Made by a program: the position numbers and the translations under genes
Notes under the pieces: generated by a model
The model's input: the letters and a program-made list of their open reading frames with translations, nothing else
The model's database searches: none
What the model was told of the DNA's origin: nothing
In this document: positions 7,793 to 14,665 of the stretch, piece by piece
Position numbering within the stretch: the stretch's first letter is position 1
Layout: each line of letters begins with the position of its first letter
IMG/VR virus record: IMGVR_UViG_2713896799_000003
Coordinates: 1-14,665 of that record
DNA: 14,665 bases
DNA from: a virus
Taxonomy: Duplodnaviria; Heunggongvirae; Uroviricota; Caudoviricetes
Direction: 5' to 3' (one strand)

Positions 7793-10393
7793 TTTTGCCG
7801 ATCTGACAGCTGTTCTTACACTGGATTCAACCCGTTTTTCTGAAGAGGCTGCACGGGTAAAGAAAGAACTGGGTGAAACCAGTGACCTTGCGGATTTGAT
7901 GGCCGGGCGTGTCAGCCAGTCTTTTAAGAAACAGGCCACTGCCGTTGAACAGGGCCTGAGCCGTCAGGCGCTGGCTGCACAAAAAGCCGGGATTTCCGTC
8001 GGGCAGTATAAAGCGGCCATGCGTACCCTGCCTGCACAGTTTACGGATATCGCCACGCAGCTTGCCGGTGGTCAGAATCCCTGGCTTATTCTGCTGCAAC
8101 AGGGCGGTCAGGTGAAGGACGCCTTCGGCGGGATGCTCCCCATGTTCAGGGGGCTTGCCGGTGCGATCACCCTGCCGATGGTCGGGGTCACCTCGCTGGC
8201 GGTGGCGACAGGTGCGCTGGCGTATGCCTGGTACCAGGGGGATTCCACGCTTTCAGCGTTTAATAAAACCCTGGTTCTTTCCGGTAATCAGTCCGGACTG
8301 ACTGCCGATCGCATGCTGACGCTCTCCAGAGCCGGACAGGCAGCAGGGCTGACGTTTAACCAGGCGAGTGAGTCACTGGCAGCCCTGGTGAATGCCGGTG
8401 TGCGTGGTGGTGAGCAGTTTGATGCCATCAACCAGAGTGTGGCGCGTTTTGCTTCTGTATCCGGTGTGGAAGTGGACAAGGTTGCAGAGGCTTTTGGAAA
8501 GCTGACCACCGACCCGACGTCGGGACTGATGGCTATGGCGCGCCAGTTCCGTAACGTGACGGCAGAGCAGATTGCGTATGTTGCGCAGCTGCAGCGTTCG
8601 GGTGATGAGGCAGGGGCCTTACAGGCGGCGAACGATATCGCCACAAAAGGCTTTGATGAGCAGACCCGTCGCCTGAAAGAAAACATGGGGACGCTGGAAA
8701 CCTGGGCGGATAAAACCGGGAAGGCATTCAAATTGATGTGGGATGCCATCCTGGATATCGGTCGTCCTGAATCCTCAGCGGATATGCTCGCCAGTGCGCA
8801 GAAGGCATTTGATGAGGCGGATAAAAAATGGCAGTGGTACCAGAGCCGGAGTCAGCGCCGGGGAAAGACCTCCTCTTTCCGTGCCAACCTTCAGGGTGCA
8901 TGGGATGACCGTGAAAATGCCCGTCTGGGGCTGGCGGCAGCCACGCTGCAGTCGGATATGGAAAAAGCCGGTGAACTGGTGGCAAGGGACCGGGCTGAGC
9001 GTGAGGCGTCACAGCTGAAGTATACCGGAGAGGCGCAGAAGGCGTATGAGCGCCTGCTGACGCCACTGGAGAAATATACTGACCGGCAGGAAGAGCTGAA
9101 TAATGCCCTGAAAGACGGGAAAATCCTGCAGGCGGATTACAACACGCTGATGGCGGCGGCGAAAAAGGATTATGAATCGACGCTGAAAAAACCGAAGTCG
9201 TCAGGTGTCAAAGTGTCAGCCGGGGAGCGTCAGGAAGACCGGGCGCATGCAGCCCTGCTGACGCTTCAGGCAGAACTCCGGACGCTGGAGAAGCATGCCG
9301 GAGCGAATGAGAAAATCAGCCAGCAGCGCCGGGATTTGTGGAAGGCGGAGAGTCAGTTCGCGGTACTGGAGGAGGCGGCGCAACGTCGCCAGCTGTCTGT
9401 ACAGGAGAAATCCCTGCTGGCGCATAAAGACGAGACGCTGGAGTACAAACGCCAGCTGGCTGCACTTGGTGACAAGGTTACGTATCAGGGGCGCCTGAAC
9501 ACGCTGGCGCAGCAGGCGGATAAATTCGCACAGCAGCAACGGGCAAAACGAGCGGCTATTGATGCGAAAAGCCGGGGGCTGACTGACCGGCAGGCAGAAC
9601 GGGAAGCCACAGAACAGCGCCTGAAGGAACAGTATGGCGATAATCCTCTGGCGCTGAATAACGTCATGTCAGAGCAGAAAAAGACCTGGGCGGCTGAAGA
9701 CCAGCTTCGCGGGAGCTGGATGGCAGGCCTCAGGTCCGGCTGGAGCGAGTGGAAAGAGAGCGCCACGGACAGTATGTCGCAGGTAAAAAGTGCAGCCACG
9801 CAGACCTTTGACGGTATTGCACAGAATATGGCGGCGATGCTGACCGGCAGTGAACAGAACTGGCGCAGCTTCACCCGTTCCGTGCTGTCCATGATGACAG
9901 AAATTCTGCTTAAGCAGGCAATGGTGGGGATTGTCGGGAGTATCGGCAGCGCCATTGGCGGGGCTGTTGGTGGCGGCGCATCAGCATCAGGCGGTACAGC
10001 CATTCAGGCCGCTGCGGCGAAATTCCATTTTGCGACCGGGGATTTACGGGAACCGGCGGCAAATATGAGCCAGCGGGGATTGTTCACCGTGGTGAATTTG
10101 TCTTCACGAAGGAGGCAACCAGCCGGATTGGCGTGGGAAATCTCTACCGGCTGATGCGCGGCTATGCGGAAGGTGGTTATGTGGGCGGTGCCGGAAGTCC
10201 GGCGCAGATGCGGCGGGCGGAAGGCATTAATTTTAATCAGAACAATCACGTGGTGATTCAGAACGACGGTACGAATGGTCTGCCAGGTCCACAGATGATG
10301 AAGGCAGTGTATGACATGGCCCGCAAGGGTGCCCGTGATGAAATTCAGGCACAGATGCGCGATGGTGGTCTGTTCTCCGGAGGTGGACGATGA
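7782..10393 (+). pseudogene. H: Tail tape measure protein H, about 870 aa; frame broken by one missing base in a G-run at 10038-10041 (possibly technical)
   Basis: ATG 7782 lies 8 nt after AGGAGG (7768-7773) and overlaps the end of T. Frame 0 is open to 10154; up to ..KFHFATG it is lambda gpH-like, then turns nonsense (DLREPAANMSQRG...). From 10037 frame 2 reads RGFTGTGGKYEPAGIVHRGEFVFTKEATSRIGVGNLYRLMRGYAEGGYVGG...RDGGLFSGGGR to the stop at 10391-10393, overlapping the M start. Confidence 0.85.
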
Positions 10394-10718
10394 AGACCTT
10401 CCGCTGGAAAGTGAAACCCGGTATGGATGTGGCTTCGGCCCCTTCCGTAAGAAAGGTGCGCTTTGGTGATGGCTATTCCCAGCGTGCGCCTGCCGGGCTG
10501 AACGCTGACCTGAAAACGTACAGCGTGACGCTTTCTGTCTCCCGCGAGGAGGCCACGGCACTTGAGTCGTTCTGGCTGAGCACGGGGGCTGGAAATCCTT
10601 TCTGTGGACGCCGCCTTATGAGTGGCGGCAGATAAAGGTGACCTGCGCAAAATGGTCGTCGCGGGTCAGTATGCTGCGTGTTGAGTTCAGCGCAGAGTTT
10701 GAACAGGTGGTGAACTGA
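10390..10718 (+). pseudogene. M: Minor tail protein M; one single-base frame change near 10572 (possibly technical)
   Basis: N-terminus MKTFRWKVKPGMDVASAPSVRKVRFGDGYSQRAPAGLNADLKTYSVTLSV is in frame 1 up to ..ESF (10572). The rest, LAEHGGWKSFLWTPPYEWRQIKVTCAKWSSRVSMLRVEFSAEFEQVVN, is in frame 0 with stop at 10716-10718. The composite is about 109 aa, like lambda gpM. Confidence 0.8.
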
Positions 10719-11393
10719 TGCAGGATATCCAACAGGAACACATCTGATTCAGTCGCCCGTGGTGCTCTGGGAATCGATCTGACAGAGGTCGGTGGAGAAC
10801 GTTATTTTTTCTGTAATGAGCAGAACGAAAAAGGTGAGCCGGTCACCTGGCAGGGGCGACAGTATCAGCCGTATCCCATTCAGGGGGTTTTGAACTGAAT
10901 GGCAAAGGCACCAGTACGCGCCCCACGCTGACGGTTTCTAACCTGTACGGTATGGTCACCGGGATGGCGGAAGATCTGCAGAGTCTGGTCGGCGGAACGG
11001 TGGTCCGGCGTAAGGTCTACGCCCGTTTTCTGGATGCGGTGAACTTCGTCAACGGAAACAGTGACGCCGATCCGGAGCAGGAGGTGATCAGCCGCTGGCG
11101 CATCGAGCAGTGCAGCGAACTGAGCGCGTCAGTGCCTCTTTTGTACTGTCCACGCCGACGGAAACGGACGGCGCTGTTTTTCCGGGACGTATCATGCTGG
11201 CCAACACCTGCACCTGGACCTATCGCGGCGATGAGAGTGCGGTTATCACGGTCCGGCGGTCGCGGATGAATATGACCAGCCAACGTCCGATATCACGAAG
11301 GATAAATGCAGCAAATGCCTGAGCGGTTGTAAGTTCCGCAATAACGTCGGCAACTTTGGCGGCTTCCTTTCCATTAACAAACTTTCGCAGTAA
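10718..11393 (+). pseudogene. L: Minor tail protein L; at least 5 frame changes (possibly technical)
   Basis: ATG 10718 overlaps the M stop (TGATG). MQDIQQEH hits a stop at 10745. The gpL-like sequence continues in successive frames: ..PVVLWE (frame 1), IDLTEVGGERYFFCNEQNEKGEPVTWQGRQYQPYPIQG (frame 0), GFELNGKGTSTRPTLTVSNLYGMVTGMAEDLQSLVGGTVVRRKVYARFLDAVNFVNGNSDADPEQEVISRWRIEQCSELSA (frame 2), VSASFVLSTPTETDGAVFPGRIMLANTCTWTYRGDE (frame 1), and a tail ending ..KCLSGCKFRNNVGNFGGFLSINKLSQ at the stop 11391-11393 (frame 0). Confidence 0.8.
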
Positions 11394-11398
11394 ATCCC

Positions 11399-12137
11399 AT
11401 GACACAGACAGAATCAGCGATTCTGGCGCACGCCCGGCGGTGTGCGCCTGCGGAATCGTGCGGCTTCGTGGTGAGAACGCCGGAGGGAGACAGGTATCTT
11501 CCCTGCGTGAATATCTCCGGTGAGCCGGAGGCGTATTTCCGGATGTCGCCGGAGGACTGGCTGCGGGCAGAAATGCAGGGTGAGATTGTGGCGCTGGTCC
11601 ACAGCCACCCCGGTGGCTGCCCTGGCTGAGTGAGGCCGACAGGCGGCTGCAGGTGCAGAGTGATTTGCCGTGGTGGCTGGTCTGCCGGGGGGCGATTCAC
11701 AAGTTCCGCTGTGTGCCGCATCTTACCGGGCGGCGCTTTGAGCACGGGGTGACGGACTGTTACACGCTGTTCCGGGATGCTTATCATCTGGCGGGGATTG
11801 AGATGCCGGATTTTCATCGCGGGGATGACTGGTGGCGTAACGGCCAGAATCTCTATCTGGATAATCTGGAGGCAACGGGTTTTTAGGTGCCGTGTCAGCG
11901 GCGCAGCCGGGCGATGTGCTGCTGTGCTGTTTTGGTTCATCGGTGCCGAATCATGCCGCCATTTACTGTGGTGACGGCGAGCTGCTGCACCATATTCCTG
12001 AACAACTGAGCAAACGAGAGAGGTATACCGACAAATGGCAGCGACGCACACACTCCCTCTGGCGTCACCGGGCATGGCACGCATCTGCCTTTACGGGGAT
12101 TTACAACGATTTGGCCGCCGCATCGACCTTCGTGTGA
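11399..12137 (+). pseudogene. K: Tail tip assembly protein K; two frame disruptions (possibly technical)
   Basis: MTQTESAILAHARRCAPAESCGFVV...VALVHSHPGG is in frame 2 to about 11613. QVQSDLPWWLVCRG...DNLEATG is in frame 1 to the stop at 11884-11886. SAAQPGDVLLCCFGSSVPNHAAIYCGDGELLHHIPEQLSKRERYTDKWQRRTHSLWRHRAW is in frame 0 to 12137. The composite is collinear with lambda gpK. Confidence 0.8.
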
Positions 12138-12705
12138 AAACGGGGGCCGAAGCCATCCGGGCGCTGGCCACACAGCTCCCGGCGTTTCGTCAGAAACTGA
12201 GCGACGGCTGGTATCAGGTACGGATTGCCGGGCGGGACGTCAGCACGTCCGGGTTAACGGCGCAGTTACATGAGACTCTGCCTGATGGCGCTGTGATTCA
12301 TATTGTTCCCAGAGTCGCCGGGGCCAAGTCAGGTGGCGTATTCCAGATTGTCCTGGGGGCTGCCGCCATTGCCGGATCATTCTTTACTGCCGGAGCCACC
12401 CTTGCAGCATGGGGGGCAGCCATTGGGGCCGGTGGTATGACCGGTATCCTGTTTTCTCTCGGTGCCAGTATGGTACTTGGTGGTGTGGCTCAGATGCTGG
12501 CACCGAAAGCCAGAACTCCCCGTACACAGACAACGGATAACGGTAAGCAGAACACCTATTTCTCCTCACTGGATAACATGGTTGCCCAGGGCAATGTTCT
12601 GCCTGTTCTGTACGGTGAAATGCGCGTGGGGTCGCGGGGTGCTTTCTCAGGAGATCAGCACGGCAGACGGGGGACGGTGGTCAGGTTGTGGTGATTGGTC
12701 GCTGA
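12035..12705 (+). pseudogene. I: Tail tip assembly protein I; two +1 frame changes in G-runs near the 3' end (possibly technical)
   Basis: MAATHTLPLASPGMARICLYGDLQRFGRRIDLRVKTGAEAIRALATQLPAFRQKLSDGWYQVRIAG... is lambda gpI-like and overlaps the K 3' end as in lambda. Frame 2 runs to ..EMRVGSR (about 12637), frame 0 reads VLSQEISTAD (12639-12668), and frame 1 reads GDGGQVVVIGR with stop at 12703-12705. Confidence 0.8.
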
Positions 12706-12723
12706 TGCAAAATGTTTTATGTG

Positions 12724-12744
12724 AAACCGCCTGCGGGCGGTTTT
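12724..12744 (+). other. GC-rich hairpin plus T-tract between I and J (possible attenuator or RNA stability element)
   Basis: AAACCGCC-TGCG-GGCGGTTT inverted repeat (12724-12743) followed by TTTTGTCGTTT, about 20 nt upstream of the J ATG. Confidence 0.3.
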
Positions 12745-12765
12745 GTCGTTTATGGAGCGTGAGGA

Positions 12766-14665
12766 ATGGGTAAAGGAAGCAGTAAGGGGCATACCCCGCG
12801 TGAAGCGAAGGACAACCTGAAGTCCACGCAGTTGCTGAGTGTGATCGATGCCATCAGCGAAGGGCCGATTGAAGGTCCGGTGGATGGATTAAAAAGCGTG
12901 CTGCTGAACAGTACGCCGGTGCTGGACACTGAGGGGAATACCAACATCTCCGGTGTCACGGTGGTGTTCCGGGCAGGTGAGCAGGAGCAGGCACCGCCGG
13001 AGGGATTTGAATCCTCCGGCTCCGAGACGGTGCTGGGTACGGAAGTGAAATACGACACGCCGATCACCCGGACCATCACGTCTGCAAACATCGACCGTTG
13101 CGCTTTACCTTCGGTGTGCAGGCACTGGTGGAAACCACCTCAAAGGGGGACCGGAATCCGTCGGAAGTCCGCCTGCTGGTTCAGATCAGCGTAACGGTGG
13201 CTGGGTGACGGAAAAAGACATCACCATTAAGGGCAAAACCACCTCGCAGTATCTGGCCTCGGTGGGTGTGGTAACCTGCCGCCGCGCCCGTTCAACATCC
13301 GGATGCGCAGGATGACGCCGGACAGCACCACAGACCAGCTGCAGAACAAAACGCTCTGGTCGTCATACACCGAAATCATCGATGTGAAACAGTGCTACCC
13401 GAACACGGCACTGGTCGGCGTGCAGGTGGATTCGGAGCAGTTCGGGCAGCAGGTGAGTCGTAATTATCATCTTCGCGGGCGCATTCTGCAGGTGCCGTCG
13501 AAATTATAACCCGCAGACGCGGCAATACAGCGGTATCTGGGACGGAACGTTTAAACCGGCATACAGCAACAACATGGCCTGGTGTCTGTGGGATATGCTG
13601 ACCCATCCGCGCTACGGCATGGGGAAACGTCTTGGTGCGGCGGATGTGGATAAATGGGCGCTGTATGTCATCGGCCAGAATTGCGACCAGTCGGTGCCGG
13701 ACGGCTTTGGCGGCACGGAGCCGCGCATCACCTGTAATGCTTACCTGACCACACAGCGTAAGGCGTGGGATGTGCTCAGTGATTTCTGCTCGGCGATGCG
13801 CTGTATGCCGGTATGGAACGGGCAGACGCTGACGTTCGTGCAGGACCGACCGTCGGATAAGGTGTGGACCTATAACCGCAGTAATGTGGTGATGCCGGAT
13901 GATGGCGCGCCGTTCCGCTACAGCTTCAGCGCCCTGAAGGACCGCCATAATGCCGTTGAGGTGAACTGGATTGACCCGGATAACGGCTGGGAGACGGCAA
14001 CAGAGCTTGTGGAGGACACGCAGGCCATTGCCCGTTACGGTCGTAACGTCACGAAGATGGATGCCTTTGGCTGTACCAGCCGGGGGCAGGCGCACCGCGC
14101 CGGGCTGTGGCTGATTAAAACGGAACTGCTGGAAACGCAGACCGTGGACTTCAGCGTGGGTGCCGAAGGGCTTCGCCATGTACCGGGCGATGTCATTGAA
14201 ATCTGCGATGATGACTATGCCGGTATCAGCACCGGTGGTCGTGTGCTGGCGGTGAACAGCCAGACCCGGACGCTGACGCTCGACCGTGAAATCACGCTGC
14301 CATCCTCCGGCACCACGCTGATAAGCCTGGTTGACGGAAATGGCAATCCGGTCAGCGTGGAGGTTCAGTCCGTCACCGACGGCATGAAGGTGAAAGTGAG
14401 CCGTGTTCCTGACGGCGTTGCGAATACAGCGTGTGGGGGCTGAAGCTGCCGACGTGCGCCAGCGCCTGTTCCGCTGCGTGAGTATCCGTGAGAACGACGA
14501 CGGCACGTATGCCATCACTGCCGTGCAGCATGTACCGGAAAAAGAAGCCATCGTGGATAACGGGGCGCACTTTGACGGCGACCAGAGCGGCACGGTGAAT
14601 GGTGTCACCGCCAGCGGTGCAGCACCTGACCGCGAAGTCACCGCAGACAGCGGGGAATATCAGGT
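12766..14665 (+). pseudogene. J: Tail tip / host specificity protein J, 5' portion (continues beyond window); at least 7 frame disruptions (possibly technical)
   Basis: MGKGSSKGHTPREAKDNLKSTQLLSVIDAISEGPIEGPVDGLKSVLLNSTPVLDTEGNTNISGVTVVFRAGEQEQ... matches the lambda gpJ N-terminus. gpJ-like sequence continues in shifting frames: RFTFGVQALVETTSKGDRNPSEVRLLVQI (frame 0 from about 13095), NGGWVTEKDITIKGKTTSQYLAS (frame 2), MRRMTPDSTTDQLQNKTLWSSYTEIIDVKQCYPNTALVGVQVDSEQFG (frame 1), then MAWCLWDMLTHPRYGMGKRLGAADVDKW...VKVSRVPDGVA (frame 2, 13574-14443), with further shifts to the window end. Confidence 0.85.

Follow-up and report, generated by a model that had tools for sequence, protein, structure and literature searches.

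The window, meaning the whole stretch of DNA analysed here (14,665 nucleotides), carries the late-gene region of a lambdoid prophage, as shown by tblastn with protein queries taken from the closest annotated E. coli prophage. It matches the entire contig LFZJ01000008.1 of assembly GCA_001264215.1 base for base, and LFZJ00000000 is the genome of E. coli IH57218, an O2:H27 STEC/ETEC hybrid from a child with diarrhoea (PMC4551483). Gene coordinates were carried onto the window through alignment with the reference prophage and are listed in Table 1, which runs from the C-terminal part of the terminase large subunit through the head, head-tail joining and tail genes to J. Two chromosome-sized contigs (about 5 Mb), L004 (GCA_036679865.1) and L005 (CP055941.1), carry a sister prophage whose genes run in the same order between terminase and J; all of these genes are intact there, J having 1233 residues, and the two contigs serve as the references for the comparisons along the window.

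Several features of the layout are conventional for such prophages. The protease and the major capsid protein are encoded by a single gene of 659 codons in which a ClpP-like prohead protease is joined to the capsid protein; RefSeq annotates relatives in the same way, and the arrangement is known among Stx-type and lambdoid prophages. The head-tail joining segment comprising DUF2190, FII-like, Z and U is a rare allele, with a top match of 95.3% identity among 5,426 complete RefSeq E. coli genomes, most of which show 80-90%, yet three GenBank assemblies (L003-L005) and many short draft contigs carry it with 100% identity. Close to the end of G lies the heptamer GGGAAAG, the programmed -1 frameshift site of lambda G/GT, and T is placed in the -1 frame relative to G; a site of this kind before T is an expected and known feature of lambda-type tail assembly chaperones. 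An open frame of 421 codons runs antisense to J. We take it to be a by-product of the codon composition of J and not a gene, since it lies entirely inside a gene whose product is 98% identical to lambda gpJ.

Table 1. Genes, zones, frame-changing events and other features along the window. Indel events are counted against L004 and L005; strands are given where reported.
Feature	Position	Strand	Basis or comment	Indel events
Terminase large subunit (terL), C-terminus	1-751		tblastn	4
Small W-like gene	748-958		tblastn	4
Portal	958-2458		tblastn	2 (start of gene)
ClpP-type protease/major capsid fusion	2448-4427	+	tblastn	
DUF2190	4515-4841		tblastn	
FII-like	4834-5115		tblastn	
Z	5118-5744		tblastn	
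U	5754-6152		tblastn	
V	6160-6909		tblastn	
G	6930-7361	+	tblastn	
T	7388-7792		tblastn	
Tape measure H	7782-10393		tblastn	1
M	10390-10718		tblastn	1
L	10718-11393		tblastn	10
K	11399-12137		tblastn	3
I	12134-12705		tblastn	2
J	12766-14665 (window end)	+	tblastn	10
Left contig-end error zone	1-987		987 bases; 0 substitutions	10 (9 deletions, 1 insertion)
Clean core	988-10037		9,050 bases; 0 substitutions	0
Right contig-end error zone	10038-14665		4,628 bases; about 45 substitutions	28
J, nine frame segments	12766-13098, 13099-13186, 13187-13271, 13272-13500, 13502-14421, 14422-14454, 14455-14607, 14608-14633, 14634-14665	+	alignment with intact J genes	
J, 1-base deletion	13098-13099	+	private to contig; codon ~111	
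J, 1-base deletion	13186-13187	+	private; codon ~141	
J, small scrambled patch, net -1 base	13265-13272	+	private; codon ~168-170	
J, 3-base loss, in frame	13445-13447	+	private; codon ~229	
J, 1-base insertion, extra A (AA to AAA)	13501	+	private	
J, 1-base deletion	14421-14422	+	private	
J, 1-base deletion	14454-14455	+	private	
J, 2-base deletion	14606-14608 (bases 14606-14607)	+	private	
J, 1-base deletion	14633-14634	+	private	
Rare head-tail joining allele	4400-6200		DUF2190, FII-like, Z, U	
GGGAAAG heptamer	7337-7343	+	intact	
ATTTT length difference, 5 bases	11398/11399		between L and K	
Antisense open frame, 421 codons	13376-14641	-	wholly within J	

Identity and reading frames of J

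The right-hand part of the window holds the first 637 codons of J, a lambda-type tip attachment or host-specificity gene that is truncated by the end of the contig; J has 1233 codons in the closest intact relatives, and only the first ~52% is contained here. Alignment of the window with intact J genes, mapped against the reference reading frame, divides the deposited J into nine frame segments produced by eight frame-changing indels, with one additional in-frame loss of three bases. An earlier sequence-only reading had described J as broken into at least eight pieces over 13092-14665, and this fragmentation is borne out; its interval extends correctly to the end of the window, and the start of the gene lies further upstream, at 12766. 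The frame changes it placed at about 13092, 13184, 13265, 13498, 14422 and 14447 each fall within about 7 bases of an indel in the alignment, the extra A it saw in an A-run being the +1 at 13501, and the two or more further changes it expected before 14665 are found as a loss of two bases at 14606-14607 and of one base at 14633.

The sequence between the breaks is closely related to lambda, with 96.3% nucleotide identity to lambda J. When the indels only are repaired, with deletions filled from L004 and insertions dropped, J reads through 636 codons with no stop, and the alignment with lambda gpJ that had been proposed as a check then extends over the whole length without a gap, 623 of 636 residues (98%) being identical. 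Compared with the L004 J there are only four amino acid differences, two of which adjoin indels. The repaired product matches the Pfam families FNIII-A_GpJ (PF24801, 142.8 bits) and Phage-tail_3 (PF13550, 148.9 bits) above their cut-offs, and a match to Ig_J (PF24421) starting at residue 610 is cut by the contig end and scores 23.8 bits, under the cut-off of 29. The genes H, M, L, K and I are placed in order immediately upstream in the tblastn mapping, which is the position of J in the lambda-type tail module.

By homology, domain content and synteny the gene is therefore a gpJ gene, and what is missing from the deposited sequence is a single continuous frame, about 1130-1230 codons long, that includes a receptor-binding domain at the C-terminus. 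This absence of a continuous frame is attributed to sequence error. J is most likely a conventional lambda-type tip attachment protein whose host-range-setting C-terminal part lies beyond the contig. The gene order H-M-L-K-I-J is shared with lambda (gpJ, J02459 15505-18903), whereas the closest intact relatives have 1233 residues in J compared with 1132 in lambda; this difference in length means that the receptor-binding C-terminus, a region outside the contig, probably differs from that of lambda.

Distribution of the indels along the contig

Comparison with L004 and L005 separates the window into two damaged ends and a core (Table 1). All 38 indel events are located in 1-987 and 10038-14665, which together amount to 5.6 kb, and none occurs in the 9-kb core (p = 1.4e-16 for a uniform distribution). 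Deletions predominate, with 34 compared with 4 insertions. The density of events shows no simple rise toward the contig tips and instead stops abruptly at 987 and starts abruptly at 10038, with particularly dense patches at 925-987 and 10737-10772. The left zone, for which the best RefSeq match is 98.9%, breaks the C terminus of terL, the W-like gene and the start of the portal gene, which is undamaged past its first ~10 codons. The right zone breaks H (at 10037), M (at 10569), L, K, I and J. Among the ten events in L, 20 bases are lost within 10737-10772, and the ten alignment events in J correspond to the eight frame changes and the 3-base loss. The protease-capsid fusion, DUF2190, FII-like, Z, U, V, G, T and codons 1-752 of H remain in frame throughout.

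Nine genes (terL, W-like, portal, H, M, L, K, I and J) are thus broken. The presentation of J as a specifically fragmented gene was misleading, since the indels are confined to the contig ends and disrupt eight other genes in the same manner at both ends of the window. With E. coli N96 (L001) as the first reference, compensating insertion/deletion pairs had also appeared at 4476-5742 and 10183-10233; these disappear against L004 and L005 and are ordinary sequence divergence.

This distribution bears on the idea that the frame changes are functional, with J expression under the control of programmed ribosomal frameshifting or phase variation. The insertion at 13501 does lengthen a run of A, and nothing more specific points in this direction. 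The eight events in J differ in size and have no motif in common, eight other genes carry events of the same kind, always at the contig ends, and related prophages have none of them. The one known programmed site of the module, GGGAAAG, lies intact in the error-free core. The proposal has a negligible probability and is effectively refuted.

The one-base deletions show some preference for short runs, with 17 of 24 (71%) being contractions of runs of at least two bases where 46% is expected. This homopolymer enrichment is moderate and on its own does not separate sequencing error from replication slippage.

Private indels, shared alleles and the origin of the frame breaks

The right end was aligned as ten sequences, comprising the window and nine references (five RefSeq E. 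coli prophages, L003-L005 and lambda). The frame-breaking indels are all private to the window, with none in any of the nine reference sequences. There are 11 private substitution columns, all within indel-scrambled patches (10742-10756, 11887-11892, 12642, 13266-13267 and 13446), and these are by-products of the alignment. Over the contig as a whole there are about 37 private indel events and 0 isolated private substitutions, and the 44 substitutions relative to L004 are alleles present in other prophages. Isolated substitutions in J comprise 18 synonymous and 1 non-synonymous changes, the latter (V223D) giving the residue found in lambda; the ratio of 18:1 indicates that the underlying J allele evolved under purifying selection. 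Just one indel of the window recurs in other sequences: relative to L004, a 5-base length difference (ATTTT) separates L from K, and E. coli 21F61 (L012) and lambda have it too. This indel breaks no gene and is a real intergenic polymorphism.

Searches for the broken forms elsewhere gave no matches. Exact look-up of the 289-residue J piece and the 790-residue truncated H returned no other record, which counts as negative evidence only. A 50-mer across two of the indels, used as an exact search pattern, matched nothing in genome_contigs or viral_contigs. Among 5,426 complete E. coli genomes the J part has no match above 97.8% identity, whereas the core matches other genomes perfectly, and no closer reference for the right end is present in this set, in which the best values are 97.0-97.5%.

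Prophage decay is common in E. coli. In nature a decaying gene gathers substitutions, nonsense codons and larger lesions over the whole length of the element, and in E. coli spontaneous mutation base substitutions are several-fold commoner than indels. The window could on this basis belong to a cryptic prophage remnant in which the tail-tip genes, J included, have accumulated frameshift mutations and can no longer build a tail tip. RefSeq marks J as a "frameshifted" pseudogene in one complete genome, that of E. coli MFDS1022581 (NZ_CP169399.1; L011, 2135-4143), and such an annotation in a finished genome means that a broken J is not impossible in itself; the short runs that contain 17 of the 24 one-base deletions are also sites at which replication slippage acts. 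The spectrum is nevertheless not that of neutral decay, with private indels and no isolated private substitutions over 14.7 kb and no stops in J after repair. Between the damaged blocks lie 9 kb that are perfectly identical to two other genomes, and the blocks themselves coincide with the contig ends. No nonsense substitutions, IS elements or large deletions were found in the window alignment or in the repaired J, the substitutions in J are almost all synonymous, and the broken products occur in no other assembly. The pattern is the opposite of natural decay and is the known behaviour of an under-corrected long-read consensus. Decay of the prophage is accordingly considered highly improbable. 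A very small probability, of the same order, is given to the indels being real through a localised, indel-only mutational process that struck the terminase/portal junction and H-J and spared the 9-kb core.

The frame breaks in J are, with high confidence, consensus errors of the assembly and not mutations, and J in IH57218 is probably intact. The strain was sequenced on the PacBio RS with P4/C2 chemistry as continuous long reads only (SRA study PRJNA269579). HGAP pre-assembly and PacBioToCA correction were followed by Celera Assembler 7.0, giving 17 contigs with gaps relative to an optical map and one misassembled area (PMC4551483). The words Quiver and coverage are absent from the text of that report, and it mentions no platform other than PacBio. 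The assembly is a 2015 draft without consensus polishing, that is, an error-prone, unpolished long-read source. Long-read assemblies are known to retain indels that truncate proteins (bioRxiv 10.1101/285049), and the fragmentation of genes by such leftover indels is also described in PMC12007338. The damage in the window resembles the errors of unpolished PacBio continuous-long-read assemblies in being indel-only, deletion-biased, homopolymer-enriched, located at contig ends and gene-fragmenting, with no isolated private substitutions. It differs from them in forming two sharply bounded blocks rather than being spread along the contig, and in that the right block coincides with a multicopy prophage module and a switch of alleles.

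The unique 9-kb core of the contig was probably well covered and is error-free. Both ends, which would have rested on few or ambiguously placed reads, carry the errors, mostly indels and biased toward deletion, that under-corrected PacBio reads typically leave behind. On the right the contig enters the tail-tip module H-M-L-K-I-J, a module common to many lambdoid prophages within one genome. Sequence similar to the J part is present in 4,605 of 5,426 complete E. coli genomes, the median being 3 places per genome and the maximum 14, with the same figures for the tail-tip module, and PHAST reports 17 prophage regions in IH57218 (PMC4551483). Low or ambiguous support at the right end is suggested by this shared module together with the many prophages of the strain, which would also account for the contig ending at that point. 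The left-end sequence is less repeated (median 1 place per genome), which makes simple thin coverage the likelier cause on that side. Both blocks have sharp inner edges, at 987 and 10038, and these suggest a change in the set of supporting reads and not a gradual taper. Three short-read draft contigs from sister strains with the same core (L007, L008 and L009) all stop inside H, about 560-1390 bases in, which fits the region from distal H to J being a repeat that assemblers cannot cross.

A further question concerns the origin of the right end itself. Relative to L004 and L005 the window is 100% identical over 988-10037 and shows no substitutions up to 10741, with only two single-base deletions after the core; substitution columns begin at 10742-10743, right in the densest error patch, and from 10743 onward the window has 44 substitutions along with the private indels and carries alleles of other prophages (L001, L002 and L010-L013) and of lambda. 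The switch takes place at the M/L junction, in the messiest patch, where the 20 bases are lost. These observations raise the possibility, held tentatively and as the lesser probability, that from ~10740 the contig is a chimeric or collapsed repeat built from reads of one or more other lambdoid prophages of the same genome, giving a mixed consensus that represents none of them singly, and that the indels arose from this mixing. The multiple copies of the tail-tip module in E. coli genomes, the 17 prophage regions and the misassembly reported for the strain are consistent with such a join. Lambdoid phages are natural mosaics, which makes genuine recombination at the M/L boundary equally possible. 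The left end, moreover, has the same kind of indels but no allele switch, indicating that mixing is not needed to account for them. The switch at 10742-10743 may reflect natural mosaicism or a chimeric join to a paralogous prophage, and the indels are artefacts either way; a chimeric end is a sub-type of the artefact explanation and not an alternative to it. The sequence-only reading had offered two outcomes for the broken J, a phage unable to make a functional tail tip or an artefact with J probably intact; the evidence favours the second and weighs strongly against the first.

Consequences for the use of the sequence

The frame breaks are not a real biological feature, and there is no new biology in the sequence. 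Taken at face value, the contig leads to the false conclusion that the phage has no working tail tip, and this affects the scoring of prophages as intact or defective, catalogues of J alleles and the prediction of host range in a STEC/ETEC hybrid of clinical relevance. None of the nine broken genes of this contig should be treated as a pseudogene, and the same caution probably extends to further small contigs in the LFZH, LFZI and LFZJ assemblies.
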